From the NCBI GenBank assembly GCA_003818605.1, contig RPQS01000064.1:1-20756 (forward strand): a stretch of DNA of 20,756 bases, given 5' to 3'. Numbering within the stretch: the stretch's first letter is position 1; every line of letters begins with the position of its first letter. The notes beneath the pieces are model-generated. The model ran no database searches and was not told where the DNA came from. It saw only the letters and a list, made by a program, of their open reading frames with translations. The position numbers were made by a program, and so were the translations under genes. The stretch is from Candidatus Zhuqueibacterota bacterium. Lineage in GTDB: Bacteria > Electryoneota > RPQS01. Shown here one piece after another: positions 3,154-20,712 of the stretch.

Positions 3154-5340
3154 ATGTCTGATTGCTCAAACGTTGCTGAGTTGATCGAAAAACTCAAACA
3201 GGTTGACCTTCCCGTGGGCTACTATGTTGTAGAAAAGGACGGTCGTTTTTTATATGCTAACAAACTTCTTCTTGATTTGCTGCACCTGAAGGCGGACAAT
3301 TATCTTCAAGCTTCTATTGCAGATAAATATGCGAATCCGGAGGAACGTAAAACTTTTGTTGACATCGTTCTCGGCGCAGCCGCCCGAAATCAACAGCCTC
3401 CCAAACAAGTTATCTCTTTCACCGTAGAAGGTCGGGAAATCTTCGTACAAGACCACTGCTGGCCGATTTATAATCCACCGGAATCTCAGAAGCTCGTAGG
3501 ATTTGTCGGAAGCCTCGTGGATGTCACCGAAGAAGAGCGTTATCGCCGCAAGCTGCCCGTTGGCGTATACCGCGTCAATCCAGAAGGAATGGTTGTCTAC
3601 GTGAATCAGGCCATGGTCAAAATGCTTAAGTATGGCAGTCCAGAGGACATCGTTGACAAGAAGAGCGTTGGCGAACTTTACTTTAATCCCGAGAAAGAAA
3701 AGGAATTCTCGGATTTGCTGAAAGAAAAAGGAGAAGTTGTTGATAAAAAGGTGGAGCTAGTAAAATCGGACGGCCAAACCATCTGGGTTTCCGCTAGTGC
3801 TTATCCGCTGGGTGATCCGAAAGTGGATTGGGTATCGCGCGAAGGTGTGCTGGTGAATGTTACCGTGGAAGAATTATACCGACAGATAATGGAATATGTG
3901 CCTGTCGGCTTATATCGTGTTCTAAAGAAAGACGGAAAGAATATACTCCATGACTGCAACAGACAATTTGATGAAATGTTCGGTTTTGCGCCGGGCACGG
4001 CAAATGGACAGCGAGCCGAAATTGTTCACGTTTCGCCTGAAGATACCGTCAAATATGAAAAAGCTATTCGCGACGCGGACCTTCTCGGACAACCATTAGT
4101 TGGATATGTCCTAAGAACAAAAAAGCAAGATGGGACAATAATCTTTATCGAGGCAAACACTCGGGCTATTCATAAGCGGGGGGAATCCGGAACGGAGAAG
4201 GGTGAAATTATCGGACGGATTGGCGCTCTGCGGGATATCACGAATGAAGTAGCCTTACGCGAACAAGTCAAGGAGTTCACGGAGGATTTCGGTGCCGTTC
4301 TTCATGAATATTCTTCCGCGCTGCTCATGTTAAGGGAGTCCACGGACTCTGCATTGGAATCCCTTGGACAAGATCCGTTTCCAAAGGTAGGCGAAATCAC
4401 TCCTCGGGTGGCAGATCAATCGCTATCCGAACCTGTATCTAAGTTTATTGATTCGTTAATAAGATTGCGTTCTCAGATGAGTGTAAATCGCCAACCGGCA
4501 AATCTAACTCCCGAGGAGTTTGAAGATTTGGACAATTATCAGGTCTTGCTGAAGAATCCTGAAAAGTATATTCCCGAACCCGCACTTAGGCTCCCGGCGA
4601 TACGCGACGCCGTTAAAAACATTCTTAATTTACTGGACAAATTTGAAAGCTCTTCTCAATATCAAGAGCAAATCAAGGATGTGAAAAGGAATGCCGAGGA
4701 AGTGCTTCGTATTTGCAGTCTGATCTACATGCATAAGGCGGGAAATGCCATTCTATCCTTGGGAAAACAAGTTCGTGCCGTCCGCAATTTCGTCACGTTT
4801 CATATTAGAGAAGATAGACGTGATATGCACTTTGTTTCCAAACTCATTGATCAGGCGGTTTCCGAATGGGCCGATTTTGCCCATATCAGGAATGTAGAAA
4901 TCAAACTGGATTACATCCATCCCAATGTTATTCTGAATGTTTCCAAGGACGATGTCGTCCGGGCCATGGCTAATCTCCTTCATAATGCCATCAAGTATAG
5001 TTGGGAGCGGAAACAGGGGGTCCCGCCTTGGGTGGATATACGGACTCGCGTGGTTCAAAAGTGGGTGCACATCGAATTCGAGGATTGGGGTGTGCCTATC
5101 CCTGCTGACGAGATTAAGAATGATGTTTTGTTCCGAATAGGCGTGCGCGGCCGGTTGTCAAGCGATCGGGAACGTGGAGGTACCGGAGTCGGTTTGGCCG
5201 ATGCCCGCCGCGTTGCCCAACGTTACGGCGGTGATGTTACCATTGTCAGCCGTCCCGCCGATTCGAAAGGCAAACCGGACAACTATAAACAGCCGTTTCT
5301 TACCACTGTCACGCTTCGATTACCGATCTTCTCCAATTAA
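3154..5340 (+). CDS. Sensor histidine kinase with three PAS domains and a C-terminal HATPase_c domain
   Basis: 728-aa ORF. Three repeats of the PAS-like pattern VGYYVV.KDGRFLYANK / VGVYRVNPEGMVVYVNQ / VGLYRVLKKDGKNILHDCN. C-terminal N-box LLHNAIKYS and G-box GTGVGLADARRVAQRYGGDVTI. No transmembrane segment, so cytoplasmic. Confidence 0.9.
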   Translation: MSDCSNVAELIEKLKQVDLPVGYYVVEKDGRFLYANKLLLDLLHLKADNYLQASIADKYANPEERKTFVDIVLGAAARNQQPPKQVISFTVEGREIFVQDHCWPIYNPPESQKLVGFVGSLVDVTEEERYRRKLPVGVYRVNPEGMVVYVNQAMVKMLKYGSPEDIVDKKSVGELYFNPEKEKEFSDLLKEKGEVVDKKVELVKSDGQTIWVSASAYPLGDPKVDWVSREGVLVNVTVEELYRQIMEYVPVGLYRVLKKDGKNILHDCNRQFDEMFGFAPGTANGQRAEIVHVSPEDTVKYEKAIRDADLLGQPLVGYVLRTKKQDGTIIFIEANTRAIHKRGESGTEKGEIIGRIGALRDITNEVALREQVKEFTEDFGAVLHEYSSALLMLRESTDSALESLGQDPFPKVGEITPRVADQSLSEPVSKFIDSLIRLRSQMSVNRQPANLTPEEFEDLDNYQVLLKNPEKYIPEPALRLPAIRDAVKNILNLLDKFESSSQYQEQIKDVKRNAEEVLRICSLIYMHKAGNAILSLGKQVRAVRNFVTFHIREDRRDMHFVSKLIDQAVSEWADFAHIRNVEIKLDYIHPNVILNVSKDDVVRAMANLLHNAIKYSWERKQGVPPWVDIRTRVVQKWVHIEFEDWGVPIPADEIKNDVLFRIGVRGRLSSDRERGGTGVGLADARRVAQRYGGDVTIVSRPADSKGKPDNYKQPFLTTVTLRLPIFSN

Positions 5341-7120: not shown

Positions 7121-7149
7121 TATTTGTGTAGTATCACTGCCTGTCTGCC

Positions 7150-7195
7150 AAGCGAGATCTCGCCGCAGGCCGACCGTGTCCGATGCACAGACACG
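7150..7195. repeat. Rep-C module copy 2
   Basis: AAGCGAGATCTCGCCGCAGGCCGACCGTGTCCG plus CGTGTC...GACACG inverted repeat. Related to 2813..2856. Confidence 0.65.
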
Positions 7196-7245: not shown

Positions 7246-7391
7246 ATTCTCCCCCCGTTCATCGCAGATCTCGCTTCGCGGACCTGCCCCGCAACGCAAC
7301 CACCGCAAGGTGCACCGCGCCGGATTACTAGCCAACACCCTCCCGGGTGTTGGTCGCAACCCCCGCCGCAATTTTTGTCTTCTTTCAGCTT
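7246..7391. repeat. Rep-B copy 2. It lies between the TetR stop codon (7392..7394) and the TetR terminator. Its GCTTTC-rich 3' tail continues to ~7412 inside the TetR C-terminal codons.
   Basis: Identical to 2417..2566 except 2 substitutions. Here the hairpin is perfect: CCAACACC-CTCCCG-GGTGTTGG. Confidence 0.85.
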
Positions 7392-7991
7392 TCAGATTTC
7401 CGCTTTCCGCTTTTCTTCCACGATTCCCTTCATAATCCCCTTCACCACCCGCTTCACCGACAACGTTTTCGTGCACGTCGTCACATAAGGCACGGCTCCC
7501 TCCACTGCACAAAACAAGGCCGTGGCTTGCGCGGCCGTGTCATGTTTGACCAACTGTCCCTGCTTCACTCCGCACGACAGCATATATTCGTACCAGTTGA
7601 TCATGGCCGCGATCCGCACATTCACATGCGGCCACCACACTTTATTCTGCAGGGTGTGAACGACTCCCAGCAAATAAAATTCCTGCTCCCGCGGATGACT
7701 GGCCCAATACTTCAGATAATCTTCGATAAATTTCCGCAGCCCCGTCACCGCATCCAATCCGCCCGCCGAATTCATCATCACTTGCACGGGTTCGAATAGC
7801 CGTTCACGGACCGCCGCCAACACCGATTCCTTGTTGGAAAAGTAATGATAGAGCGTGGATCGGTCTATCTTCGCACGTTTTGCGATCTTTTCCATTGAAA
7901 CACCATCGTAGCCCCATCGTATAAATTCGCGAAAAGCGGCATTAATGATGTCTTTGATTCTTTTGTCTTTAGCCTGAATTGTGCCGGGCAT
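7392..7991 (-). CDS. TetR/AcrR-family transcriptional regulator
   Basis: 199 aa. N-terminal HTH AAFREFIRWGYDGVSMEKIAKRAKIDRSTLYHYFSNKESV is typical of TetR. The C-terminal helical ligand domain is present. Confidence 0.9.
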   Translation of the reverse strand: MPGTIQAKDKRIKDIINAAFREFIRWGYDGVSMEKIAKRAKIDRSTLYHYFSNKESVLAAVRERLFEPVQVMMNSAGGLDAVTGLRKFIEDYLKYWASHPREQEFYLLGVVHTLQNKVWWPHVNVRIAAMINWYEYMLSCGVKQGQLVKHDTAAQATALFCAVEGAVPYVTTCTKTLSVKRVVKGIMKGIVEEKRKAEI

Positions 7992-8535: not shown

Positions 8536-8574
8536 AAAGCCCTTGTTAACGATTATGTTAACGAGGGCTTTTGG
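8536..8574 (+). terminator. Terminator of ssrA
   Basis: AAAGCCCTTGTTAAC-GATTAT-GTTAACGAGGGCTTT long hairpin (~14 bp stem, one mismatch) followed by TTGG. Contains two GTTAAC sites. Confidence 0.6.
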
Positions 8575-8750
8575 TATACAAGCACATGACATATTCGTTT
8601 TCCTTGCAGTGTGCTGTCATTCATTGACTCTCGAAAGACATTTTGCTAACTTGAGATTAATGCACTTCGGCTGAGGGTTCACCCTTGTCATGCACCTTAA
8701 GATGAGCGAATTCTCTGTTGAAAAGCAGTAGGGTTCGCTCGGTTCATTTT

Positions 8751-9042
8751 ATCACCTGCCGCTATCAACATCATAGCGACGGCCGATAGAGCATCGAGAT
8801 GAGCACGCTGCCGCGAAGCGGCACAGCAAGCATAGCACCTTCGGTGCCATCGCCATTATAGCGACTGCCGAGTGGGCATCGGTGGCAGCGAAGCGGCGCG
8901 AGCCGAGTACTTATTCGCACCTTCGGTGCCATTACCATTATGGCGATAGCCAGTAGGGCAGCGAGATGAATACGCTGCCACTAAAGCGGTGCACACACAC
9001 GAGACAACGCTGCACCTTCGGTGCCATCACCATCATAGCGAG
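8751..9042. repeat. Rep-A tandem cluster: four head-to-tail units (8751-8834, 8835-8916, 8917-9011, 9012-9042 truncated)
   Basis: Each unit begins (A)TCACCTGCC / GCACCTTCGGTGCC, then CATC(A/G)CCAT(C/T)AT(A/G)GCGA(C/T)(A/T)GCC, then a variable part containing CGCGAAGCGGC-like hairpins. Period 82-95 bp. Degenerate Rep-A-like fragments also occur at 8668..8720. Confidence 0.85.
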
Positions 9043-9077
9043 AAATAACAGCATATCGCAAACGAGGTTTATTCGCG

Positions 9078-9740
9078 ATGACGACGGAAAACCTGTGGCC
9101 GAAAGAATGTGCAATGTGTGGCAAGGTTAGCGCACACACCAAACTTAGTTCAAGTACGGAGTTCGGCCCCCCTGATATGGACCTTCGTCCAGCGGAGATG
9201 TATCGTTCGACGATAAGCACTTGGATTCAACGATGTCCATACTGTGGGTTTTGTTCAGGCGACATTAGTGAGGCTGAGGAGGTTGACAAAACGATAGTCA
9301 ACAGCCCAAGCTACCAGTCACAGTTAAATGATCCGCGCTTTTCGGAGCTGAGCAATTCATTTCTCTGTCGAGCAATGATCGAGAACTCGTTGGGAAACTA
9401 TCAGGCGGCCGGGTGGGCTGCATTGCGTGCCGCGTGGGTGATGGACGACAGACAAAATGTTGCGTCTGCTGCGCAGTGCCGGCTTCGGGCAATTAAATTG
9501 TTCCTGCGTGATTTCGCAGCACGGCGGGACAGCTTGAAGGAACCGGCAAAATACTATGTCCTGCTCATAGATCTACATCGGCGCACCGAGCAGTTTGGAA
9601 TGGCGCAGACCCTGTTGCTTGAGGGCAGACTTCTGAACCTTCAGGATAATGAACAACAGATATTCGACATTCAGAACGAGCTTATTGCCAAGCGTGACGC
9701 CCGATGCTACACGACATTAGGAGAGTTGCGCAACGAATAG
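9078..9740 (+). CDS. Zinc-ribbon plus helical (TPR-like) protein, possibly DUF2225-like
   Basis: 220 aa. Two CxxC pairs (CAMCG ... CPYCGFC) at the N-terminus followed by an alpha-helical region. The family assignment is from memory of domain architecture only. Confidence 0.6.
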   Translation: MTTENLWPKECAMCGKVSAHTKLSSSTEFGPPDMDLRPAEMYRSTISTWIQRCPYCGFCSGDISEAEEVDKTIVNSPSYQSQLNDPRFSELSNSFLCRAMIENSLGNYQAAGWAALRAAWVMDDRQNVASAAQCRLRAIKLFLRDFAARRDSLKEPAKYYVLLIDLHRRTEQFGMAQTLLLEGRLLNLQDNEQQIFDIQNELIAKRDARCYTTLGELRNE

Positions 9741-9767
9741 TCTGTCCCAGAACACTGAATCTATGGT

Positions 9768-9835
9768 GTTGCACCGAAAGCCTGCCGCCATTACCAACAT
9801 CCAAAGCGCAAGTGGTGCCATTTATTCTGACGACG
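9768..9835. repeat. Degenerate Rep-A copy
   Basis: GCACCGAAAGCCTGCCGCCATTACCAACATCC...GGTGCCATTTATTC. Recognisable CTGCCGCCAT(C/T)ACCA core but diverged. Confidence 0.5.
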
Positions 9836-9882
9836 TACAGCGGACGGATATAACAAGTGGTGTCTCTACAGGATAAGACTCC

Positions 9883-10719
9883 ATGAGAACAACCGCCTTT
9901 TTTCCCTTTTATTGGCTGCTGGTATGTATGGCTTTCGCACAGCCGCCTGATCTACAAATGCACCAATCCACAGAAGCGACTCGACAACGCGGGGGATTTT
10001 CGCTCGGACTTCAACACGAACAATCAACGCCGCTCGACGAAAATGTTAATCTTCGCCATTCGAACATTGATATTGTTACTTTCTGCATGGATACGCTGTT
10101 CGGCTACGAGACAATCTGTAGCTGGTGGGACGTTTTCAATCCATTCAGTCCAGAGGACAACTTCACCGTCGATGTTGCCCGCATTCACGCGACTCCGGAG
10201 CATCTTACTCAGTATTATTGGAACATCTTTGTCCCCGAAAGAAGTCCAGCCGATCCGGATCCCGGAAATCCCAACTTCAGCAATGCTCTCTACGACGCAC
10301 TAACCATTCAGGGAGATCCCTACGGAAGCGCAAGGATTTTTCCTGTTACCGTGGACGCTGGCCTGGGAACCGAGGACTTCCTCTTCCTCGCCCGTGCCTA
10401 CGACGATTCGATTCATTTTGTTTCTGTTGACCCGCACTTGATTCCAGTCACACATGGGCTACACGTGACCGTCACGTGTTACCCAAATCCCTCCAATGCG
10501 AAGACAATCATCTCGCTCGCACTGCCGCACGCGAGCAAAGTCAGCCTTGCCGTGTACGACATCATGGGCCACGAGGTGTGTGCGCTGTACGAGGGAATGC
10601 TTGAGGCTGGAGAGCAACGGTATGCATTTGACGGTTCGCTGCTGCCATCAGGGATTTACTTTGCGCGCTTGGATGCAGGCACCTTCTCGCAGACGAAGAA
10701 GCTCATGCTGCTGAAGTAA
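9883..10719 (+). CDS. Secreted protein with C-terminal T9SS/Por sorting domain (FlgD-Ig-like)
   Basis: Signal peptide MRTTAFFPFYWLLVCMAFAQ. The C-terminal ~80 aa are CYPNPSNAKTIISLALPHASKVSLAVYDIMGHEVCALYEGMLEAGEQRYAFDGSLLPSGIYFARLDAGTFSQTKKLMLLK, which matches the Por_Secre_tail / FlgD_ig pattern. Confidence 0.8.
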   Translation: MRTTAFFPFYWLLVCMAFAQPPDLQMHQSTEATRQRGGFSLGLQHEQSTPLDENVNLRHSNIDIVTFCMDTLFGYETICSWWDVFNPFSPEDNFTVDVARIHATPEHLTQYYWNIFVPERSPADPDPGNPNFSNALYDALTIQGDPYGSARIFPVTVDAGLGTEDFLFLARAYDDSIHFVSVDPHLIPVTHGLHVTVTCYPNPSNAKTIISLALPHASKVSLAVYDIMGHEVCALYEGMLEAGEQRYAFDGSLLPSGIYFARLDAGTFSQTKKLMLLK

Positions 10720-10730
10720 ATCATTCCTGA

Positions 10731-10806
10731 CGCCTGCCGCCATCACCATCATAGCGATAGCCGATGGGGTATCGAGATGCTGTAGAGCAGCAGGCGGAGC
10801 ACGCGC
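10731..10806. repeat. Rep-A copy (full length, best-preserved)
   Basis: CGCCTGCCGCCATCACCATCATAGCGATAGCCGATGGGGTATCGAGATGCTGTAGAGCAGCAGGCGGAGCACGCG. Flanking inverted repeat CGCCTGC/GCAGGCG encloses the core. Confidence 0.85.
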
Positions 10807-10848
10807 CCTCTTGTTACTGTCTAAAAGCGAAGGAGCTTGCTCGGAGAC

Positions 10849-12333
10849 ATGAATCCCCGATCATTTAAGTGGTTCTTTGGTATTTTGGCATTTCTATTTG
10901 CTCTATACCTGACGCTTTTGATCCCAGATCCAGCAGTGCTGGTTTCGCGCGCGCAAGATAAGGAACCCTTTGCATGGAATCGCGACGAGTATTGGTCATC
11001 GCTGGAATCAAGGTTCAAGGAAGCACGGGCTGAAGGCTGCGCGGGTTTATCTTTAGCGATTAATCAAAGACTCTCAAAGATTGATAGTCTCAATGTGCGA
11101 TTGCGGAACGGTTCACTGCCACCTACGATGCCGGTGTACGGTGAAGTCGAGAGCAACTTCTTTGAGTCGGGAGTGCTCCTGGCTGTTTGTCCGTCCAGGG
11201 CCAGCGACTATATGAGATCCTTCGGGGAGCTCAGACGTGCCTTGAAACAGCAGTCTGTGAAGTGGGACATGAACTCTCAAGCCGGGCGAGACTGCATCTA
11301 CAGGCTTCTCTATGGCGGTCGCATTGCTATCGAAGAGGTGATTCTGCAGTCGGCTAAAGGGGTTGTTTCACAGCCCGTCGTAGAAGCGAACGAACCCTCG
11401 GAAACACCATCCGCAACCATCTTGGGCATGGAGATTCACAGTGGTGACATCCTGGTATCACGAGGCGGTGCTCCGACGTCAGCCTTGATCGCGCGGGGCA
11501 ATGACTACCCCGGCAACTTCTCTCATGTCGCTCTGATCTATATTGACGAGAACACCGGTTTGGTCTCGATCATTGAATCTCATATCGAGAAGGGGGTAGC
11601 AATTGCCGGCATAGAGGACTACCTCAAGGATATAAAACTGCGGGTGATGGTGCTTCGCCTTCGATCGGACCACCCCGCATTGCAAGCCGATCCGATGCTT
11701 CCACACTACGCGGCCAAGTACATGTTTGGGCAGGCAGGCGCTGAGCATATCCCTTATGATTTTGCGATGAACACGTCGAACAAATCCAAAATGTTCTGTT
11801 CCGAGGTCGTATCCGGCGCTTACAGTCACTGCGGTGTCAAGCTTTGGGCCGGACTCTCCAACATCTCCAGCATGGGAGCCCGGTCGTGGTTGTCCGCCTT
11901 TGGCGTGCGAAACTTCACCACCGAGGAACCGTCGGATCTTGAATACGACCCTCAACTAAGCGTGATCGTCGAATGGCGCGACTACGAGACGCTCTACAAG
12001 GACCATTTGGACAATGCGGTGGTAGACATCATGCTCGAGAGTGCGGACAACGGGGCAGCGCTTGGTTATGACTGGTACATGCTGCCAGTGGCAAGGGTGA
12101 TCAAAATCTATTGTGCGATTATCAATAAGTTCGGTGCTATCGGACCGATCCCGGAAGGAATGACGGCCACATCAGCCTTGAAGAACAAGTGGTTCTCCCG
12201 GCACCATAGCGAAACAGTAAAGAAACTAAGTGTTCTGGCACAGCACTTCCGGCAGAGCAACGGCTATTCTCCGCCGTATTGGGATCTGATCAAGCTTGCT
12301 CGACAAGCCTATACCTCGTCTGTCACAAGATGA
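10849..12333 (+). CDS. Permuted papain-fold peptidase (C92 / YiiX-YebB-like) with N-terminal TM anchor
   Basis: GDILVSRGGAPTSALIARGNDYPGNFSHVALIY (His-first motif) followed later by KMFCSEVVSGAY (catalytic Cys). N-terminal FKWFFGILAFLFALYLTLLI. The ATG at 10849 is preferred over the listed TTG at 10837 because AAGGAG lies at 10829..10834. Confidence 0.75.
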   Translation: MNPRSFKWFFGILAFLFALYLTLLIPDPAVLVSRAQDKEPFAWNRDEYWSSLESRFKEARAEGCAGLSLAINQRLSKIDSLNVRLRNGSLPPTMPVYGEVESNFFESGVLLAVCPSRASDYMRSFGELRRALKQQSVKWDMNSQAGRDCIYRLLYGGRIAIEEVILQSAKGVVSQPVVEANEPSETPSATILGMEIHSGDILVSRGGAPTSALIARGNDYPGNFSHVALIYIDENTGLVSIIESHIEKGVAIAGIEDYLKDIKLRVMVLRLRSDHPALQADPMLPHYAAKYMFGQAGAEHIPYDFAMNTSNKSKMFCSEVVSGAYSHCGVKLWAGLSNISSMGARSWLSAFGVRNFTTEEPSDLEYDPQLSVIVEWRDYETLYKDHLDNAVVDIMLESADNGAALGYDWYMLPVARVIKIYCAIINKFGAIGPIPEGMTATSALKNKWFSRHHSETVKKLSVLAQHFRQSNGYSPPYWDLIKLARQAYTSSVTR

Positions 12334-12372
12334 CGGCACAACCGAATAGCAACGATAACAACAAACGACATG

Positions 12373-12415
12373 AGCTGCATCGGCCATCACCATCATAGCG
12401 ACGATAGCAGCACCA
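12373..12415. repeat. Rep-A copy (core only)
   Basis: GCTGCATCGGCCATCACCATCATAGCGACGATAGCAGC. Confidence 0.7.
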
Positions 12416-12454
12416 CACCGAATCCTAAAACCAGGCAGCACGAAAGAGCATTTC

Positions 12455-12820
12455 ATGGGATTTCTAAAGCGCCTTTTCACCGGTTCTACAAAGCCAGGCA
12501 AGCCGATTGCCGTAACGGACGAATCTTTCGAACAGGAAGTGCTGAATTCAGATTTGCCTGCGGTGGTTGACTTCTGGTCACCGACGTGTGCGCCGTGTCA
12601 GGTGATGGGAGGACTCTTGAATGAGCTTGGTCCAGAGTTTACAGATCGTCTTCGGATTTTCAAGTTGAACGTGGAACAAAGTCCGGACACCGCTGAACAG
12701 TACCGGATTCGGGGTGTTCCCACACTCGTATTCCTGCGCAAGGGGCGAGAAGTTGACCGTGTTGTAGGTCTGATGCCACTTCATCCGCTGCGCGCCAAGC
12801 TTGAGAAACTTGCATCATAG
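12455..12820 (+). CDS. Thioredoxin-family protein with CAPC active site
   Basis: VVDFWSPTCAPCQ ... GVPTLVFLRKGREVDRVVG is the classic thioredoxin fold. Active site WSPTCAPC instead of WCGPC. About 18-aa N-terminal extension. Confidence 0.9.
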   Translation: MGFLKRLFTGSTKPGKPIAVTDESFEQEVLNSDLPAVVDFWSPTCAPCQVMGGLLNELGPEFTDRLRIFKLNVEQSPDTAEQYRIRGVPTLVFLRKGREVDRVVGLMPLHPLRAKLEKLAS

Positions 12821-12827
12821 ACTCGAT

Positions 12828-12990
12828 GGCCTTCCGGTGCGCATCGGCCAGCATCATCATAGCGAGAGCCGATAGGGCCTTAGATGCTTCGGAGTAGTGC
12901 GAAGCGCGGTAACCAGACGTGCCGGCGCATACCGCCATCACCATTATAGCAGGGATGACAGTGGAGGTCGCAGCGTCGGCATGACCGATA
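12828..12990. repeat. Two adjacent Rep-A copies (12828-12912 and 12921-12990)
   Basis: GGCCTTCCGGTGCGCATCGGCCAGCATCATCATAGCGAGAGCCGATAGGGCCTTAGATGCTTCGGAGTAGTGCGAAGCGCGG, then CCGCCATCACCATTATAGCAGGGATGACAG.... Confidence 0.75.
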
Positions 12991-13152
12991 CGTTATTTAC
13001 CCATGAACAGAGCACTCTAAGCAGTCAGGAATCGGCATCCCACAATGGCTGAAAAAAACACACTGCGTGCGTCCCGCCTTCCATCATAGATATCGCAAGA
13101 GCCGGTGTGTAAAATGCTCAATCGGTTAACCACATACACTCTTGGAGAGAAA

Positions 13153-15603
13153 ATGCGAGTCTTACAGTGGTCCTTGGTTCTTGTTTTTACCTTTGCTGTT
13201 GTTGGCATAGCGCAGCCCTTGGATGATGTTCAATTATCGGGCATCGTCCACGGCTACTATGGGCCAGACACGACGGTTTTAAGCAATGCGACCGTTATGA
13301 TTGAGAACCTCGGAACGGGTCAACACGACTCGGTTATCACCAATGATTTAGGATTTTGGTCGTGGACCGGAGTGTCGAATGCCGTGGGCGAACCTCATTC
13401 GCCCGTGCCGGGAAATCTCGCGCTGGCTCCCAGCTATCCGAATCCATTCTCGGAGACGACGACGATTCGCATTCTGAACAATTCCCAGCAGCGTGTACGA
13501 CTTGAGGTGTATAACATTCTTGGGCAGCGGGTAGCCGAACTGGTGGATGACAATCTGCGTCCCGGCGCGTTCGATCTCACATGGAACGGCGTAAGCCGCA
13601 ACGGCACACCTCTCGCGCAAGGCATGTACTTTTTATGCTTGAACGCTGGCGGTCATGCGGTGACCCAGAAGATGGTGGTTCTTGGAACCGGTTCAGGACT
13701 TGCGAAAATGTCGCTTCGCGGGTCGAATCCGGGAAGCGGAGGATTGTTCGAACCCTTGCGCGGCTCCGGATTAAAAGGACATGCGAGCACGCTGGATGAT
13801 TTCTTGCTTCGCCTGGAGTTCCGGCACACGGACTATGACTCGGTGATCATGAACCTTACTTTGGCGGATGGACAGGATACGATGCTTGTGACCTACTTGC
13901 GCCGTCACCAAACTCCCGAGATGGTTCTGGTACCGGAGGGACCGTATTCGATGGGAGCGACTTATCGCACCACATCACAGCCTGTTCATACGGTGAATGT
14001 TCCGGCATTTTATCTTGATGTGTACGAAGTCACCAACTCCCAGTACAAAGCCTTCTGTGATTCCACGGGGCGCACCTATCCTCCCGATCCCCAATTCACC
14101 GGCATGCCCAACTACTTCACTGATCCGCTCTACGCGAATTACCCCGTGGTGAGCGTCTCATGGTATGATGCTCGCGCCTACGCTACGTGGAAAGGGAAAC
14201 GCTTGCCCACCGAAGCCGAATGGGAACGTGCGGCGAAGGGGAACGTGGACAACCGGCCGTGGCCGTGGGGAGACACATGGGTCGCGGCGAATGCCAACAT
14301 CTACCAGAATGCTGCTGACAGCTTCGAGTTTACGTCACCCGTCGGTCATTACGTTAATGGGATCAGTCCGACCGGTTGTTACAACATGGCGGGCAATGTG
14401 TCGGAGTGGTGTGAGGATGACTGGCATGATGATTATAACGGCGCCCCCACTGACGGCAGCGCATGGATAGACAATCCGCGCGGCCCCTACCGTATTATAC
14501 GGGGCGGTTCATGGCAGGGCTACGATTATAGCGCACGATGCGCCGAACGCGACTTGAACGAACCATCCATGCAACACAGCGCTATCGGTTTCCGTTGCGC
14601 CAGAAGCATCACCATCAATCAGCCGCCCTTAACTCCGTCTTCACCAATTCCAACGGATAGTGCAATCAATCAGTCAGTGACCGTCACTCTCGCGTGGACC
14701 TGCAATGATCCGGACAATGATCCAACTACGTACGATGTCTATTTTGGCACGGCATCTACGCCGCCACTGGTCAATTCCAGTCAGACAGCAGCAACTTACG
14801 ATCCGGACACGTTGGCCAACAACACAACCTACTATTGGCGAATCGTGGCGCATGACAATCACGATCACTCGACATCGGGACCTGTTTGGTCGTTTACAAC
14901 GCTGATGGGAGGCATGGTTTTAGTTCCGGCGGGGCCGTATACAATGGGTTCTTCCGCATTGGGAAGCACTGCAAGACCTGAACACACCGTCGATATTCCC
15001 GCGTTTTATATGGACATCTACGAAGTGACGAATGCCCAATATAGAGCCTTCTGTGACTCGACAAGCCGGGCGTATCCGTCCGATCCGGGCTTTTACACCA
15101 ACTACTTCACAAGCCCAACCTATGCGAGTTATCCGGTAGTCATGGTAGATTGGAATGACGCCAGCGCTTATGCGACATGGGCGGGGAAGCGGCTGCCGAC
15201 GGAAGCGGAATGGGAACGTGCGGCGAAGGGGAATACGGATAACCGCTTGTATCCATGGGGAGATGCGTGGGTTGCAGCCAATGCCAACGTCATCAATAAT
15301 CCCGCCGATGGATACACCTACACATCACCTGTAGGCAATTACCCGAATGGGATCAGTCCGGCGGGCTGCTATGACATGGCTGGAAATGTGTTCGAGTGGT
15401 GCGAGGATGACTGGCATTCGAACTATACCGGTGCGCCGACCGACGGCAACGCCTGGATAAACAATCCGCGCGGCGCCTATCGTATTCTACGGGGCGGCTC
15501 ATGGAACGTCAACCAGTTGAACGCACCATGTGCTTTTCGTTTCTTCGACAGTCCGACGTCCCGCTACAACCTTTACGGATTCCGTTGCGCCAGAACGCCA
15601 TAG
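13153..15603 (+). CDS. Secreted tandem FGE/SUMF1-domain protein (paralog of 1..2122). Signal peptide, CarboxypepD_reg-like region, internal FlgD-Ig/T9SS-CTD-like domain, FGE domain 1, Fn3-like linker, FGE domain 2.
   Basis: The probable start is the ATG at 13153 (MRVLQWSLVLVFTFAVVGIA, GGAGAG 4 nt upstream); the listed GTG at 13105 adds 16 non-signal residues. PSYPNPFSETTTIRI...GMYFLCLNAGGHAVTQKMVVL at residues ~95-185. Two copies of HTV.VPAFY.D.YEVTN.QY.AFCD ... RLPTEAEWERAAKGN ... GNV.EWCEDDWH ... RGGSW, which are the FGE-sulfatase signatures. Linker WTCNDPDNDPTTYDVYFGT...TYYWRIVAHDNHDH is Fn3-like. Confidence 0.9.
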   Translation: MRVLQWSLVLVFTFAVVGIAQPLDDVQLSGIVHGYYGPDTTVLSNATVMIENLGTGQHDSVITNDLGFWSWTGVSNAVGEPHSPVPGNLALAPSYPNPFSETTTIRILNNSQQRVRLEVYNILGQRVAELVDDNLRPGAFDLTWNGVSRNGTPLAQGMYFLCLNAGGHAVTQKMVVLGTGSGLAKMSLRGSNPGSGGLFEPLRGSGLKGHASTLDDFLLRLEFRHTDYDSVIMNLTLADGQDTMLVTYLRRHQTPEMVLVPEGPYSMGATYRTTSQPVHTVNVPAFYLDVYEVTNSQYKAFCDSTGRTYPPDPQFTGMPNYFTDPLYANYPVVSVSWYDARAYATWKGKRLPTEAEWERAAKGNVDNRPWPWGDTWVAANANIYQNAADSFEFTSPVGHYVNGISPTGCYNMAGNVSEWCEDDWHDDYNGAPTDGSAWIDNPRGPYRIIRGGSWQGYDYSARCAERDLNEPSMQHSAIGFRCARSITINQPPLTPSSPIPTDSAINQSVTVTLAWTCNDPDNDPTTYDVYFGTASTPPLVNSSQTAATYDPDTLANNTTYYWRIVAHDNHDHSTSGPVWSFTTLMGGMVLVPAGPYTMGSSALGSTARPEHTVDIPAFYMDIYEVTNAQYRAFCDSTSRAYPSDPGFYTNYFTSPTYASYPVVMVDWNDASAYATWAGKRLPTEAEWERAAKGNTDNRLYPWGDAWVAANANVINNPADGYTYTSPVGNYPNGISPAGCYDMAGNVFEWCEDDWHSNYTGAPTDGNAWINNPRGAYRILRGGSWNVNQLNAPCAFRFFDSPTSRYNLYGFRCARTP

Positions 15604-15638
15604 TTGGCTCTTGCTCCCTTGGTTCTTGACTCTTCGGT

Positions 15639-15670
15639 TGTGCGTAAATCTTTCGTACACACTTTTTTGG
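15639..15670 (+). terminator. Possible weak rho-independent terminator after the FGE gene
   Basis: TGTGCG-TAAATCTTT-CGTACA hairpin (one G:T) followed by CACTTTTTTGG. Confidence 0.35.
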
Positions 15671-15725
15671 TTATCATACGCAAGTATGACAGACATGCGA
15701 AGCATCAGCCACTGCATCTGAAGTT

Positions 15726-15900
15726 GCCACTCACCTTCATCACCATCATAGCGACAGCCGATGGTGCATCGATGCGAAGCTCTGCGATATTCGAAGCCAT
15801 TCGCCTACGGATCGGCCATCATGAATATGATTGCAACCATGGTACCGCACGCGGGGATGGTGTTACGGCACAGCATCATGTGCATCAGCGACCATTGACC
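15726..15900. repeat. Rep-A copy (15726-15786) plus a degenerate copy (~15869-15900)
   Basis: GCCACTCACCTTCATCACCATCATAGCGACAGCCGATGGTGCATCGATGCGAAGCTCTGCG, and further on CATCATGTGCATCAGCGACCATTGACC. Confidence 0.75.
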
Positions 15901-16052
15901 CTCCTTGGACGTTGAACTTCCATCCGCCGGTTATGCCACACGGGAAAGTGCGCCATTTGGCTAACGACATACAGTCTGTGGCAAAGGCGGAAGTTCAAGT
16001 TTCCGCTGCCCCCAACAAACCAAACCGGAAAAACCTTAGAAAGGTAACAGAG

Positions 16053-16913
16053 ATGATCTACGTAGCGATTACGCTTCTTGCATTGCTTATCGTTTCATTT
16101 TTCGTAAAATGGGAATCCAATGCGGTTCCCCCTTGGGTGAAAGGTGCTATTATTGCTCTCGCAGCAATCTTCACGGTTTTCAGTATGGTGCGTACCGTTC
16201 CCAACGGCAGTTGCGGTGTTGTTGACCTGTTCGGCGTGATCCAGCCAACCGCACTGGATCCCGGAATCAATTTCGTGAACCCGTTTGCTGATGTAATCCA
16301 TAAACCGACACGCACCCAAGAGATCAAAGAGACCATGATCACACCATCCAAAGAAGGTCTGTCGTGTGAACTTGAAGTTTCTTGCTTCTTCCATGTCAAA
16401 AAAGAAGCTTGGCCTGTGATGATGCAAACAGTTCAGAACGGCGACCCATTAGTTCTCCTGGAACCCAATTTTCGTTCAGTAACACGTGATATTACGACTA
16501 CATCGGAGGCAAAAGCCCTATACACTGCTGACCGGACCATTCTCGCGGGTAAGTTGAAAACCGATTTGGCGACGGTCGTTGGTCCTCGTGGTATCACGAT
16601 TGAAGAAACTCCGATGCGCAGTTTGAAGTTGCCTGCGAGTGTATCTGAGGCAATTAATGCGAAGGCAACAGCGGAACAGGAAGCTCAGAAAATGGAGTTT
16701 GTCTTGCAGAAAGAGAGGCAAGAGGCTGAGAGAAAACGTATCGAAGCCCAAGGCATCAAAGACTTCCAGAAGATAATATCTGAAAGTATCAGCGATAAAT
16801 TACTTGCTTGGAAGGGGATTGAGGCGACAATGGATATTGCCAAGTCTGAAAACGCAAAAACTGTAATTATTGGATCGGGCAAGAATGGATTACCCATCAT
16901 TCTCGGTCAGTAA
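16053..16913 (+). CDS. SPFH / band-7 (prohibitin, HflK/C-like) membrane protein
   Basis: MIYVAITLLALLIVSFFVKW (TM) then VRTVPNGSCGVVDLFGVIQPTALDPGINFVNPFADVIHKPTRTQEI, which is the SPFH-domain signature. C-terminal coiled-coil-like EQEAQKMEFVLQKERQEAERKRIEAQ. The start at 16053 is preferred over the listed 15831 because the upstream 220 nt overlap the Rep-A copies and AAAGGT lies 8 nt before 16053. Confidence 0.8.
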   Translation: MIYVAITLLALLIVSFFVKWESNAVPPWVKGAIIALAAIFTVFSMVRTVPNGSCGVVDLFGVIQPTALDPGINFVNPFADVIHKPTRTQEIKETMITPSKEGLSCELEVSCFFHVKKEAWPVMMQTVQNGDPLVLLEPNFRSVTRDITTTSEAKALYTADRTILAGKLKTDLATVVGPRGITIEETPMRSLKLPASVSEAINAKATAEQEAQKMEFVLQKERQEAERKRIEAQGIKDFQKIISESISDKLLAWKGIEATMDIAKSENAKTVIIGSGKNGLPIILGQ

Positions 16914-17059
16914 TTGAGTCTGAAAACGATGGATCTTTCTCATCGGGACCATGGTCGTCGCACCGGGATCTGTGGCTACGGTCAAGGGATCCGTTGGCTA
17001 TGACGTGGAGGACGGACACGTTCTGAGAGCCTGTGTGTTCTTGGTCTTGTCCCCGAAAC

Positions 17060-17285
17060 CGGTACCACCGCGAAGCGGCACACACCACGCCTGAAATCAT
17101 AAGGCACAATTGCTGCCGCCATCACCATTGTAGCGACATCCATAAGGTATGAGATGCTGCGAAGCGGCATACCGATCTAACGCACCCTCGGTGCCATCAC
17201 CATTATAGTGAAGATGGCAGCAGTGTGCGGCAAACAAAGTATCAAGTGCCTTCGCGTGCCTCCCCCTTCATCACCATAACGAGCT
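17060..17285. repeat. Cluster of three or four Rep-A copies or fragments (17060-17080 tail fragment, 17112-17170, 17182-17232, 17246-17285 degenerate)
   Basis: GCTGCCGCCATCACCATTGTAGCGACATCCATAAGGTATGAGATGCTGCGAAGCGGCAT, then GCACCCTCGGTGCCATCACCATTATAGTGAAGATGGCAGC, then GTGCCTTCGCGTGCCTCCCCCTTCATCACCATAACGAGC. Confidence 0.8.
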
Positions 17286-17365
17286 TGTTGTGCGTATTGT
17301 TCAGACGATTTACTTACCGTATACTACTGACTGCATTCTGTTCACTTCGCCTCAGAGAGGATCCG

Positions 17366-17704
17366 ATGAAAACAACGACTCAGAACCAGGGAGACGTACT
17401 GGTAATCTACCTTCACGGGAAAATCATGGGTGAGGAGCCCGGCACAACGGAATTTCATGATACAATCACGAGCGCGATAGTCGAAGGGAAACGGAAGGTC
17501 GTCGTTGACTTCGCAAATGTCGACTGGCTGAATAGCTCTGGCTTGGGAATGCTGGTGAAATCTTATGGGATTCTCAAAGAGGTTGATGGCCAGATGCGGT
17601 TGTCTGGAATGAATGAGCCTGTAACACAAGTAATGGTAAATACACGACTCGATCTCGTATTCGAAATCCACCAGTCCGTGCAATCCGCAATTGCAAGTTT
17701 CTAA
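17366..17704 (+). CDS. STAS-domain anti-sigma-factor antagonist (SpoIIAA/RsbV-like)
   Basis: MKTTTQNQGDVLVIYLHGKIMGEE...VVVDFANVDWLNSSGLGMLV...MRLSGMNEPVTQVMVNTRLDLVFEI. Start at ATG 17366 with GAGAGG upstream. The listed 17225 start lies inside the repeats. Confidence 0.8.
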   Translation: MKTTTQNQGDVLVIYLHGKIMGEEPGTTEFHDTITSAIVEGKRKVVVDFANVDWLNSSGLGMLVKSYGILKEVDGQMRLSGMNEPVTQVMVNTRLDLVFEIHQSVQSAIASF

Positions 17705-17709
17705 GGGGC

Positions 17710-17860
17710 GCAGTGGCCGCGTAGCGGCGCAAGCTGTTAGACATTCGCACCTTCGGTGCCATCACCATCATAGCGATAGGCGATGGGATATCGAGATCGC
17801 GAAGCAGCGTGATTCGGCGGTCGGCATTCGCCGCCCACCTTCATCACCATCATGCAAGAG
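17710..17860. repeat. Rep-A copies (17747-17809 full, 17836-17860 partial) plus a GCCGC-GTA-GCGGC hairpin at 17717-17729
   Basis: GCACCTTCGGTGCCATCACCATCATAGCGATAGGCGATGGGATATCGAGATCGCGAAGCAGCG, then CCACCTTCATCACCATCATGCAAGAG. Confidence 0.8.
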
Positions 17861-17923
17861 AATGAAAAAAGTGCTGATCACATTTCGGACTGGGCATAAC
17901 TATTCTTCTATTCACCGACACCG

Positions 17924-19150
17924 ATGAAGACATCCGCGACGTCGCAGAAATCACCAACGGTGGTCTACCGGTTCAAAGCGATCTCCGATAGTTACACGGA
18001 GCCGGGAACGGTTTGGCGTGTGATTGAGATCCCGTCCAATCGGACGCTTGGCAGTTTGAACAAGGCGATTTGCAATGCCTATGACCGGTGGGATAATCAG
18101 TTGTGGTCGTTCTTCTTTGGAATGCCCGGCAAGCGCGGCACTCAGGAGTATGTGACTTACCGGGACCCGCGCCGGTTTGGGCGCAAGACCAAGTCGGGCC
18201 ATGAGGCGAAGCTGAAGTTCCTTCCCCTCAACGACCACCCGCAGTTTTATTACGTTTGGAGCTACGAGCAACAATGGTGGCATCGCATTGAGTTTCTCGG
18301 CATCCATGACGTTGATCCAGACGTGACATACCCTCGTGTCGTTGAATCACAGGGATTTGCACCGCCCGTTCACATCGATTTCCTTGCCCCTCAACCAGCG
18401 GACGAGTCCGTGACCATTAACGTCGGCATGGACAAGGACCGCAGGGTGACATATGCCGAGTTGGATGCTTCTCTGAAGACACGGCCCAAAGCACTGAGTA
18501 CTCCAGAAGTGATCGGGTACCTGCGTGGAGCGGTATCGGCGGCAAACATCGTGATGCCGTCCCGCTATTGGGGTCTTCTGCTGGGGAACGATCCATTTGA
18601 AAGCACGGAACAACTTGCGGATCTGCAATCGTTGCTCTTCAGTCTACACAATCAATTGGCAGACTCGATTTCTTCCGGGGTGCCGGTGGTCTTGCGCCGG
18701 TCGTTCTATCCGGTTACGCGCGAGGGCCTGTTGCTGTTCGCATCGGATTTGCGGATGGAAATACAGGGGTTTCGACGGGGGCTGGACATGGGTCAAAGTA
18801 ATCCGGATGACTTAGACAAGGAAGGCATGCGAGCCATGATGGCGATGGTTGAAGCGGATACGCTTCTGGAAGGTGTGGAGGACTTTCAAAGGCGAAACAC
18901 CGTGCTCAAACCAGCCGAGATCAAGCAAATACACAAGCAGGTGTTGGGCGTGGCGGAGGTGGTTGACACGATCATGATGGATCTGGGGATCGCTTTTCGG
19001 TCAACGCGAAAACAGACAATCGAGAGTACACTCAAAACCGCTACCAAGACGGAAGTCAGACGCAACGATCCCTGTCCTTGTGGCAGCGGGAAGAAATACA
19101 AGGCCTGCTGCCTGGACAAGATCCGGCAAACGAATCCGGAGAACAATTAA
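17924..19150 (+). CDS. PRiA4b-ORF3-like domain protein with C-terminal SEC-C metal-binding motif
   Basis: N-terminal LGSLNKAICNAYDRWDNQLWSFFFG fits the plasmid pRiA4b ORF-3-like (pfam07929) pattern L..I..AFGW..HLH.F. C-terminal NDPCPCGSGKKYKACC is the SEC-C motif. Confidence 0.75.
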   Translation: MKTSATSQKSPTVVYRFKAISDSYTEPGTVWRVIEIPSNRTLGSLNKAICNAYDRWDNQLWSFFFGMPGKRGTQEYVTYRDPRRFGRKTKSGHEAKLKFLPLNDHPQFYYVWSYEQQWWHRIEFLGIHDVDPDVTYPRVVESQGFAPPVHIDFLAPQPADESVTINVGMDKDRRVTYAELDASLKTRPKALSTPEVIGYLRGAVSAANIVMPSRYWGLLLGNDPFESTEQLADLQSLLFSLHNQLADSISSGVPVVLRRSFYPVTREGLLLFASDLRMEIQGFRRGLDMGQSNPDDLDKEGMRAMMAMVEADTLLEGVEDFQRRNTVLKPAEIKQIHKQVLGVAEVVDTIMMDLGIAFRSTRKQTIESTLKTATKTEVRRNDPCPCGSGKKYKACCLDKIRQTNPENN

Positions 19151-19173
19151 AGGTGAGGCGCTATCGCTAAGTC

Positions 19174-19743
19174 ATGACTGACAACAGCAGAAACAAGGCA
19201 AGGATTAGGCGTGTTTACGATGCCACCCTAACCAATATTGAATCGATGATTAGCCAACCGAACCGCGTTCAGTTACATATACCAACCCTGTGGCACCAAG
19301 ACCAGTGGGAGCGGTACGTGAAAGCGGATCTCATATCACGTAAGGATGTCCAATTCCTACACTCACGGATCACCGTTGCGATGCGTCTACAGGAATTCGT
19401 GGGGCTTAACGTAGACGGAAATTGGCGCGTGTCGTTCGACAAGTTGGTGAATTTACTCTTCAATGCGATGTTGATGAGAGAGTGTTTTCCATTGCTTGAG
19501 AAAGTGAATGCCACGGAAATGATTCTTCAGTCGCAGGACAGATTCAGCATTCTTCTCGGACGCTCTTCGGACAGTGTGTCAGACGAAACATGGAAGTTAA
19601 TTGGCACAAGGATTGCAGACCCAATATATAGGGACAACTCGATAAATACAAAGACTCTTTTGCATTTCTTCTTTGCATACCTTTTGTCCGGGGCGCAGCT
19701 TGCGAAATATTGGAAGGGGATTGAATTATTCGACGTCGCGTGA
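19174..19743 (+). CDS. Hypothetical protein (189 aa), probably co-transcribed with 17924..19150
   Basis: ORF begins 24 nt after the previous stop with no intervening repeat. Sequence is protein-like. No recognisable motif. Confidence 0.5.
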   Translation: MTDNSRNKARIRRVYDATLTNIESMISQPNRVQLHIPTLWHQDQWERYVKADLISRKDVQFLHSRITVAMRLQEFVGLNVDGNWRVSFDKLVNLLFNAMLMRECFPLLEKVNATEMILQSQDRFSILLGRSSDSVSDETWKLIGTRIADPIYRDNSINTKTLLHFFFAYLLSGAQLAKYWKGIELFDVA

Positions 19744-19920
19744 AAGATTTGGACAGCCATCTTCGAGCCCATGTAAGTTGCACGCCCACCTACGCCAGTA
19801 ACATCTGGCGGCAACTTTTAGCTATGCCGACAGCAGATACTCTTAAGTTCGGTTATATATTACTATCATCGGAGAGACCGAAACGATATAGCTGAAGTCG
19901 AGAAGTTCTACGGGTTCTTT

Positions 19921-20493
19921 GTGGATGTTGCAGATGAGCTAATGGGCGAGTTGTCGACTGATTTTGCGCGAAGGCATTTCATTGAATTGGGCTTCGTCAT
20001 AGCGGAGTCCTTCAGATTTCCGCCGATCAATCTCGGAATTGCGATCATAGGCCGGCAACCCCTGCTCGCCGCAGAGGTCGAGGTTAACGCCGCGAAGCGA
20101 AAGCCAAAGGTGGAACCCGAGTGGGCAGAGATTGCGGATGTAGAGTGGTCCACCAAGCCACTTGAGTTTGCACGTGATCGTGAGATGCTACTCGGGCATG
20201 GCGCCTGGCCCAGTATTAAGCCAAGTGTCGAACACGAGGCGGACAAAATCCTTTTCGACATACGCAAGGATGAAAATGATAGCACGCCGCTGACAACAAG
20301 ATTGGTGGAGCGCGTGGATTGCATAGAAACCTATGAAATTGTGAAGGCTCTCGTCGCTCGCTATGTTGTTTGCTGGTGTGCTGCCCGCCATCGAAACAAG
20401 AACGTCGTAGAGGAAATCCTCGGCTATCCAGCTCGTCCACCGCGCAGGAAGCGTCGGCCAAATGCTCCCAAAGGAGAGCAACTACCCCCTTAG
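19921..20493 (+). CDS. Hypothetical protein (190 aa, GTG start as listed)
   Basis: Plus-strand ORF with mixed charged and hydrophobic composition. The overlapping minus-strand ORF 19908..20324 is Ser-rich low complexity and is judged antisense noise. Basic C-terminal tail PPRRKRRPNAPKGEQLPP. Confidence 0.4.
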   Translation: MDVADELMGELSTDFARRHFIELGFVIAESFRFPPINLGIAIIGRQPLLAAEVEVNAAKRKPKVEPEWAEIADVEWSTKPLEFARDREMLLGHGAWPSIKPSVEHEADKILFDIRKDENDSTPLTTRLVERVDCIETYEIVKALVARYVVCWCAARHRNKNVVEEILGYPARPPRRKRRPNAPKGEQLPP

Positions 20494-20683
20494 ATCCGTT
20501 GCCAGATACAAGATCCTATTTTAATGATTGCCTGAGATCCTGGGGTCTCGCAGGGTTCAAATTTCCGCAAGGTATGGATTCGACGCTTTGGGAAGATCGC
20601 GAGAAGGAGTTTGCGCGAAAAGGCTTACCTGAATTGCGCAGATAGCCAAGTTGACCAACACGGACCAGCGCCGGGCTATCTCC

Positions 20684-20712
20684 GGAGAGGCACTCGCCTC
20701 TCCATTTTTTGT
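20684..20712 (+). terminator. Strong rho-independent terminator
   Basis: GGAGAGGC-ACTC-GCCTCTCC (8-bp perfect stem, 20684..20703) followed by ATTTTTTGTT. Confidence 0.75.

Follow-up and report, generated by a model that had tools for sequence, protein, structure and literature searches.

Rep-A, a sense-oriented intergenic repeat at the boundaries of shuffled gene units in an uncultured lineage of the FCB group

Rep-A is a short repeat found between unrelated, co-directional genes in a 20,756-nt stretch of DNA from Candidatus Zhuqueibacterota (contig RPQS01000064.1 of assembly GCA_003818605.1; the whole stretch is called the window below), where it occupies the region directly downstream of ssrA, the gene of transfer-messenger RNA (tmRNA), which forms the left border of the array. 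Comparison with related contigs places the boundaries of exchanged DNA at the edges of the repeat's core, and the gene units between the copies behave as cassettes. Our preferred reading, held with about even confidence, is that Rep-A constitutes a new, lineage-specific family of dispersed junction repeats, locked in orientation, and that its direct copies drive the cassette-like shuffling. It belongs with dispersed intergenic repeats such as the repetitive extragenic palindromic (REP) and BOX sequences, as a variant with integron-like consequences. We know of no such element, and it is not described in Rfam or in the literature searched; a literature search with the string of the core sequence returned His-tag primers only. 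The window is a metagenome-assembled contig, and the host is an uncultured sediment bacterium of the FCB (Fibrobacteres, Chlorobi, Bacteroidetes) group with Zixibacteria as its nearest named relatives. This assignment follows from the peptidase C92 encoded in the array, which is exactly the NCBI entry [quoted passage not shown] and is followed by Zixibacteria as next named relatives.

Within the window, Rep-A is represented by 12 clear copies and, besides these, by a partial copy and a decayed remnant (Table 1); all lie on the + strand and outside the called genes. A direct-repeat search of the window found the family only at 8746–17853. The core, CATCACCATCATAGCGA, matches 12 times on the + strand and not once on the − strand when up to three mismatches are allowed, and an nhmmer profile, built from all copies including those found later on other contigs, returned the same 12 at E ≤ 0.003. 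The initial annotation, which was made from the sequence alone, had thus recognized a real family and, apart from counting about 16 copies, had delimited it well: core scan and profile confine it to 8758–17853, with no copy elsewhere in the window, be it in the 8.7 kb to the left of ssrA or after 17853. The eight array gaps (1,962 nt) hold 13 copies and the other intergenic DNA (~1,860 nt) none, which corresponds to p ~2e-4 by our own arithmetic from the gap lengths. That every gap carries the repeat holds for the array gaps generally, but gap 9741–9882 contains the decayed remnant only.

The anatomy of the element was deduced from an alignment of at least ~128–145 distinct copies, taken both from the window and from related contigs. 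The part that stays constant is a non-palindromic core, C-N-(GC/TT)-CATCACCATCATAGC(G/A)A-N-GAT, with sharp edges and variable flanks; little information lies outside these 17–25 conserved nucleotides. An optional 5′ module consists of a GCACC-TTCG-GGTGC mini-hairpin with a variable loop. On the 3′ side two forms are distinguished; in the long form the core is followed by the block CGRCCGATAGGGCATCGAGATGC and a GC-GNA-GC mini-hairpin (loops GAA, GCA, and GTA), in the short form only by AGATGACAGCAG...GCACCGGC. In the window a copy that directly follows a stop codon is of the long form and the one closest to the next start codon of the short form; elsewhere the short form runs in tandem with a period of 44–49 nt. 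Unit length therefore extends from ~44–49 nt (short form, other contigs) up to 80–100 nt, a wider range than the 60–90 bp first estimated.

Rep-A had been described as a structured element, which holds for local mini-hairpins only; it is not uniformly structured and possesses no common fold. The folds of single copies differ (z-scores between −0.05 and −3.8); in 23 short units RNAalifold detects no pair and in 22 long units six pairs without compensatory change, and the bases flanking the core that could extend its CATC/GATG stem, at (−1,+22) and (−2,+23), do not covary. The dyad of the core itself is merely 5 bp long (CCATC...GATGR). In the GNA hairpins, G-U and A-C combinations, counted to tell which strand folds, number 9 versus 3, a count biased by the selection rule. 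With Rfam 15, the tmRNA alone reaches its gathering score in the window, and no match overlaps the repeat even at E ≤ 10.

Several other identities of the core were considered and rejected. A coding, upstream open reading frame, or read-through function of the CAT-CAC-CAT-CAT run is contradicted by unit lengths that are not multiples of three and by frames and stops that are not conserved. Resemblances to a K-turn, a fluoride riboswitch, and a his leader, checked by eye, lack a partner strand or context, and Rfam is negative. The spacing of GGCACG..TGCA in short units is 2 nt too short for a sigma-54 promoter; antisense sigma-70-like sites in the long forms (TCGATA-16-TATGAT) are lost in variants with a 9-nt insertion. 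Lastly, the core has no complement of 9 nt or more in the tmRNA or the window, and its duplex energy is no better than that of shuffled cores.

A metagenome scan with a 19-mer of the repeat yielded at least 118 stretches, and at least ~145 distinct copies are present on at least ~30 other metagenome contigs of a KSB1/Zixibacteria-like lineage (individual contigs are denoted by L-numbers). Among the matches listed, at least ~27 contigs, mostly from freshwater or sediment assemblies of the Joint Genome Institute (JGI), carry 2–10 copies each, and on every contig examined all copies are on one strand. The nearest long open reading frame (ORF), in a crude ORF set, is co-oriented with the repeat in 90 of 100 cases upstream and in 100 of 109 downstream. 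Most array contigs, again among the matches listed, share no homology with the window except in the repeat, and the element is therefore not specific to the ssrA locus. An array beside ssrA does recur in a relative (L047), where an ssrA 89% identical to that of the window is followed by different genes separated by the same core; clustering at this locus only, as had been envisaged, is refuted by L138 and L136, in which the array starts after a conserved AMP-ligase/epimerase/C92 operon. An even scatter of copies, which would have spoken for an ordinary REP-like family, is not what the contigs seen present: the copies are clustered, with none in the 8–10 kb flanks beside the arrays.

Among more distant relatives, single copies occur 86–244 nt upstream of + strand genes in L160, L162–164, and L013, and several short-form copies are found on two contigs of metagenome-assembled genomes, L013 and L017. 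Apart from these two, a 19-mer scan of species-representative genomes gave single chance matches only. The motif is absent from L165–L169 among the relatives scanned, and also from L170, though the BipA encoded there is 88% identical to that of L162. In an unbiased, BipA-centered sample of relatives, three loci and likewise L170 are without the repeat; since it is missing around BipA in relatives, the clade carrying Rep-A appears to be narrow. Such patchiness is more easily reconciled with a spreading repeat than with an ancient regulon or regulatory motif. A phage-borne element was considered and discarded, as viral contigs gave single chance matches only. Matches near an integrase in gut metagenomes proved to be due to chance as well, the 19-mer lying within a 664-aa coding gene; it occurs once in this gene of a widespread gut Bacteroidales element in L032 and at least ~25 human-gut contigs, with a tyrosine recombinase ~1 kb away. 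In L162, two identical variant cores of 25 nt, CCTTCATCACCATCATCCGCATCGC, 10.4 kb apart (15008–15036 and the 3606–4590 region), bracket the C92 operon and the gene for BipA.

The boundaries of the exchanged units became apparent when the contigs were cut at the cores and the pieces clustered into unit families. One unit family has different neighbors on different contigs; F0 is followed by F2 in L071, L122, and L140, while in L144 F2 follows F3 and F0 is found 3.7 kb further on. In alignments of the junctions (units A, B, and C in L071, L140, and L144) similarity switches partner at the core. Closely related strains show the same: L136 and a 25-kb contig (L138+L081) share 98.8% identity over 4.4 kb up to ...CATCACCATCATAGCGAAGA, beyond which 805 nt in the one and 5,053 nt in the other are unrelated, and homology restarts at the 5′ edge of the next core. 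Likewise, similarity of L037 and L086 (98.8% identity) begins 5 nt before a core, and that of L031 and L144 (94.5% identity) stops 3 nt after one. Presence, absence, and order of gene-plus-repeat units thus differ between strains with breakpoints at the repeat, and the element marks the boundaries of gene units; an identical gene order in all relatives, which would have indicated a fixed chromosomal region, is contradicted by L136 versus the 25-kb contig and by others. Gene-less tandem (“empty”) units are common among the clustered pieces, and where short units separate the same pair of genes, their differences are patchy, both of which are typical of slippage and gene conversion.

A repeat-driven origin of this variability could be envisaged as follows. 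Near-identical direct repeats, at distances between a few hundred and a few thousand bases, would serve as portable homology; recombination or slippage between cores would duplicate units, generating tandem runs with a period of 44–49 or 80–100 nt, and exchange between cores would delete, insert, or swap the intervening genes, that is, create cassettes without an integron. We infer that the exchange is driven by homology or slippage and not by a dedicated enzyme. Because the copies lie between genes and only in sense orientation, they are presumably transcribed with the array; and because, besides this orientation, the core is near-invariant, something seems to read the sequence, so that a trans-acting factor, not visible on any contig examined, would keep the core constant. 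At junctions downstream of type IX secretion system (T9SS) cargo genes similarity extends further: the 3′ ends of these genes, encoding the C-terminal sorting domain, and the 16–24 nt up to the next core are ~80% identical at the DNA level, and this conserved block (10644–10757 in the window, and at many loci) is shared by otherwise unrelated cargo genes; it therefore constitutes a longer shared block of homology at such junctions.

Several points weigh against shuffling driven by the repeats alone. A core of 17–25 nt that stays near-invariant while its flanks drift implies sequence-specific recognition, and RecA-dependent exchange would have little length to act on. Truncation at a core is seen in two genes, namely an IS110 fragment of L136 and a tyrosine integrase of L162, hinting at site-directed illegitimate events, and the strict sense orientation could stem from a role in expression and not from mere tolerance. 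Moreover, dispersal was judged from contigs, and since the repeat was the query by which these were collected, the sample is biased in favor of arrays.

As an alternative, crossover might take place at the core through a dedicated, site-specific recombination system other than an integron, which would excise and insert units and whose enzyme would be encoded elsewhere or be a guide-RNA recombinase. We consider this unlikely, yet a continuous, asymmetric, and sharply bounded core is what a recombinase or guide RNA would target; all copies are direct repeats, each breakpoint examined is at a core edge, whole units are swapped between ~99% identical strains, and genes are truncated at the core. 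The arrays also start beside ssrA in two lineages, and in L162 (3606–4590) beside a tRNA gene (read by eye) that is followed by the truncated tyrosine integrase. However, homologous exchange would equally place the breakpoints where the only shared sequence ends, the abundance of empty tandem units and the patchy conversion look like slippage, the long and short forms alter the spacing next to the core, which a site with two recombinase arms would not tolerate, and the units include genes of the phylum-wide core (C92; BipA in L162). Nor was an enzyme found where it was sought: the window has no Phage_integrase match and no recombinase signature in its unannotated ORFs, and a profile search of all six-frame ORFs of the array contigs found no further integrase or IS110, the recombinase-type genes there being, besides the remnants mentioned, one IS110 and one IS630 element. 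REP-associated tyrosine transposases (RAYT; Y1 HUH) were not noticed among the 25 commonest Pfam families of 60 array-contig proteins, in which no search aimed at them was made. Similarly doubtful is the more far-reaching proposal that the core is the site of an undescribed cassette platform of the FCB group, moving gene units, T9SS cargo genes included, at arrays seeded beside ssrA or tRNA genes, as a functional analog of the integron with an independent origin; its enzyme, encoded away from the arrays, would recognize the asymmetric sequence of 17–25 nt in place of a folded attC.

In L125 an IS110-family element (insertion sequence with a DEDD transposase) sits exactly in a core, ...CATCATAGCGA[AG]-IS-[AG]ATGACG (ATAGCGA[AG]-IS-), and the target core reads CATAGCGA-AG-ATGACG; the IS110/IS1111-family element occupies 858–2210 in oriented coordinates and is flanked by AG. 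The ~195 nt of non-coding DNA past its transposase gene may encode a guide (seek or bridge) RNA. In L136 a core is joined to a 3′ piece of this IS110. Elements of this family insert likewise in REP sequences (PMC1525189, PMC11208160, PMC12288879).

A different view, possible though improbable in our estimation, holds that the core is mainly an expression signal carried along with each gene, with shuffling as a side effect. It might act as a mobile promoter or as an operator, read by a dedicated sigma or transcription factor, as an elongation signal of the ops type, or as an RNA site in a 5′ leader that binds a protein or small RNA. The strict sense orientation is readily explained in this way, as are the single copies before start codons in relatives, one of them in a divergent intergenic region in L160; in several gaps of the window the copy nearest to the gene is the best preserved (9025, 12385, and 10741), and, as there is no canonical terminator between the array genes (terminator scan of the window), the elements would be part of transcripts. 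On the other hand, conservation is continuous and not bipartite, with no match to the spacing of sigma-70 or sigma-54 sites; neither a conserved fold nor, even at E ≤ 10, an Rfam family is recognizable, and no complementary partner exists in the window or the tmRNA. A signal of this kind would also have to account for up to 4–5 tandem copies per gap, for a copy in L162 that follows the last + strand gene in a convergent gap, for close relatives (L170) in which the same genes lack the motif upstream, and for the patchy phylogenetic distribution. A candidate promoter at 8624–8652 (below the scan threshold) would put the four leading repeats of the window (copies 1 to 4) into a 5′ leader of ~420 nt.

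The initial annotation had named two precedents for the array, integron cassette arrays, including clusters of attC sites lacking an integrase (CALIN), and genomic islands targeting tmRNA genes. Unrelated co-directional genes each followed by a repeat, and an array directly downstream of ssrA, are indeed what these would offer, but it is highly improbable that the array is either a canonical integron array or CALIN whose attC sites have diverged or a tmRNA island of the classical type. No RYYYAAC...GTTRRRY pair (50–150 nt) is present on either strand of the eight gaps, which contain three isolated single cores only; the copies share no imperfect hairpin, and neither IntI nor another integrase was detected by Phage_integrase search in the window and the array contigs. 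As for the island, there is no integrase by ssrA, the window contains a single occurrence of the 24 nt at the 3′ end of ssrA even at three mismatches, and GC content is uniform. The alternative offered at the time, a REP-like family akin to bacterial interspersed mosaic elements (BIMEs), is closer in kind, except that the core is not palindromic and its orientation is locked to transcription.

Comparison with known systems defines the position of Rep-A further. Like REP and BIME sequences, it is a short, extragenic, multicopy repeat, presumably within transcription units, forms composite or tandem clusters, and is a hot spot of rearrangement; REP sequences are preferred targets of the IS110 family (PMC1525189, PMC11208160), and Rep-A, too, has an IS110 in its core. 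REP sequences are, however, imperfect palindromes present in both orientations, which alternate in BIMEs, while the core of Rep-A is non-palindromic, without a supported fold, always in sense, and clustered in one-directional arrays. With integron attC sites and CALIN it shares unrelated genes in one direction bounded by a repeat, and units that vary between strains with the boundary inside the repeat; it differs in having no R″/R′ cores, no hairpin architecture of the bottom strand, and no IntI. What is conserved in Rep-A is a sequence of 17–25 nt and not a structure as in attC, and, unlike integron cassettes, its units are frequently gene-less and in tandem or comprise multi-gene operons and core genes.

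Modular intergenic repeats with long hairpins that are co-transcribed with genes include pneumococcal BOX (boxA-boxB(n)-boxC), enterobacterial repetitive intergenic consensus (ERIC), and Correia elements. Rep-A resembles them in being modular and intergenic with optional or tandem sub-units, but there is no sequence relationship, and to our knowledge none of the three has been reported to be strictly sense-locked or to bound shuffled gene units. In Borrelia, the upstream homology box (UHB) preceding erp and mlp genes provides shared 5′ sequence as portable homology for recombination; UHB, mobile promoters (“promoter propagation”), and Rep-A all represent portable homology before unrelated genes, but copies of Rep-A are also situated 16–24 nt past stop codons and in tandem runs, without a recognizable promoter consensus. 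Finally, the pdif (XerC/XerD) modules of Acinetobacter plasmids are bounded by 28-bp sites of an 11-6-11 layout in inverted pairs and are moved by a recombinase not encoded in the module. Gene modules bounded by short conserved sites are common to both systems; the copies of Rep-A, however, are all direct, and the dyad of its core comprises only 5 bp (see above).

If shuffling is repeat-driven, Rep-A would be a natural case of a short oriented repeat making a chromosomal region a hot spot of cassette-like turnover. If, instead, a dedicated enzyme reads the core, there would be a second, independently evolved system of cassette capture with a usable, sequence-defined site; only if such a recombinase is found would the element be categorically new. 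Secreted T9SS proteins abound in this uncultured lineage, and the repeat explains the poor assembly of its genomes. In either case the core offers a convenient means of locating the lineage's variable gene arrays in metagenomes, and it is naturally targeted by a guided recombinase of the IS110/IS1111 type.

The credible genes from 9078 to 20493 are all on the + strand (Table 1), and JGI called the same set on an overlapping contig (sample 3300027743; coordinates shifted by +7923). The functions originally predicted for the array genes, namely T9SS tail, C92, thioredoxin, tandem FGE, SPFH, STAS, and SEC-C, agree with Pfam; the protein encoded at 9078–9740, thought to be a zinc-ribbon protein, gave no match in a Pfam search, while CxxC pairs are visible in its translation. 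The C92 peptidase is conserved phylum-wide, and the usual place of its gene is the end of the AMP-ligase/epimerase/C92 operon (L138, L162, L164, and L165); in the window the gene is solitary, with a repeat on either side, and has therefore moved out of its ancestral operon.

Table 1. Coordinates of Rep-A copies, genes, and signals in the window
Feature	Position	Strand	Evidence
ssrA (tmRNA), tag peptide ANNTYALAA	8183–8536	+	ARAGORN; Rfam RF00023, 184.8 bits
Intrinsic terminator of ssrA, canonical, GC stem then TTTT	8537–8574	+	read from sequence
Possible sigma-70-like promoter, TTGACT-17-TAACTT, ahead of first repeat	8624–8652	+	read from sequence; below scan threshold
Rep-A copy 1, long form; core 8763–8779, 2 mismatches; GCCGC-GAA-GCGGC hairpin 8809–8821	8746–8830	+	repeat search, core scan, nhmmer
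Rep-A copy 2, long form; GCACC-TTCG-GTGC hairpin; core 8848–8864	8831–8912	+	repeat search, core scan, nhmmer
Rep-A copy 3, long form; core 8930–8946, 3 mismatches	8913–9007	+	repeat search, core scan, nhmmer
Rep-A copy 4, short, gene-proximal form; perfect core 9025–9041, 53 nt ahead of ATG 9078	9008–9060	+	core scan, nhmmer
Seven repeat-separated, co-directional gene units	9078–17704	+	Pfam; JGI gene calls
Unit gene without family	9078–9740	+	Pfam; JGI gene calls
Decayed core remnant GCCATTACCAACAT	9783–9796	+	nhmmer E = 2.9, repeat family D13; weak
T9SS tail gene	9883–10719	+	Pfam; JGI gene calls
Rep-A, long form; perfect core 10741–10757, starts 21 nt past stop of T9SS gene	10731–10796	+	core scan, nhmmer
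Peptidase C92 gene	10849–12333	+	Pfam; JGI gene calls
Rep-A, short form; perfect core 12385–12401, 70 nt ahead of thioredoxin ATG	12375–12412	+	core scan, nhmmer
Thioredoxin gene	12455–12820	+	Pfam; JGI gene calls
Rep-A, long form; core 12849–12865, 2 mismatches	12838–12905	+	core scan, nhmmer
Rep-A, short form; core 12936–12952, 3 mismatches	12926–12965	+	core scan, nhmmer
Gene with tandem FGE (FGE-sulfatase) and T9SS-tail domains	13153–15603	+	Pfam; JGI gene calls
Rep-A, long form, CCTT-type 5′ flank; perfect core 15738–15754	15728–15785	+	core scan, nhmmer
SPFH gene	15933–16913	+	Pfam; JGI gene calls
Rep-A, long form; core 17120–17136, 2 mismatches	17110–17170	+	core scan, nhmmer
Rep-A, short form; core 17195–17211, 2 mismatches	17181–17222	+	core scan, nhmmer
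STAS gene	17366–17704	+	Pfam; JGI gene calls
Rep-A, long form; perfect core 17760–17776	17743–17812	+	core scan, nhmmer
Partial core CCTTCATCACCATCAT, then diverges; last array copy	17832–17853	+	nhmmer 17838–17853, E = 0.013; families D11, D17
Three more genes, no repeat among them: SEC-C/PRiA4 17924–19150, 19174–19743, 19921–20493	17924–20703	+	Pfam; JGI gene calls
Canonical terminator closing the + gene row, the only other one besides that of ssrA	20684–20703	+	terminator scan

To the left of ssrA the window contains a second, unrelated repeat family of 147 nt, with two copies at 2415–2561 and 7247–7393 (97% identity) and partial copies at 2667–2721, 2796–2850, and 7128–7182. It brackets a 4.8-kb segment of lower GC content (0.44–0.49) that encodes a PAS histidine kinase and two ORFs without family match and that could be a separate inserted element. 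At the edge of the contig, the minus strand of 1–1381 resembles tandem FGE-sulfatase genes, of which only short ORFs are left; its DNA is 72–75% identical to the FGE genes of L031, L047, and the window (13153–15603), and it is probably a decayed FGE paralog.

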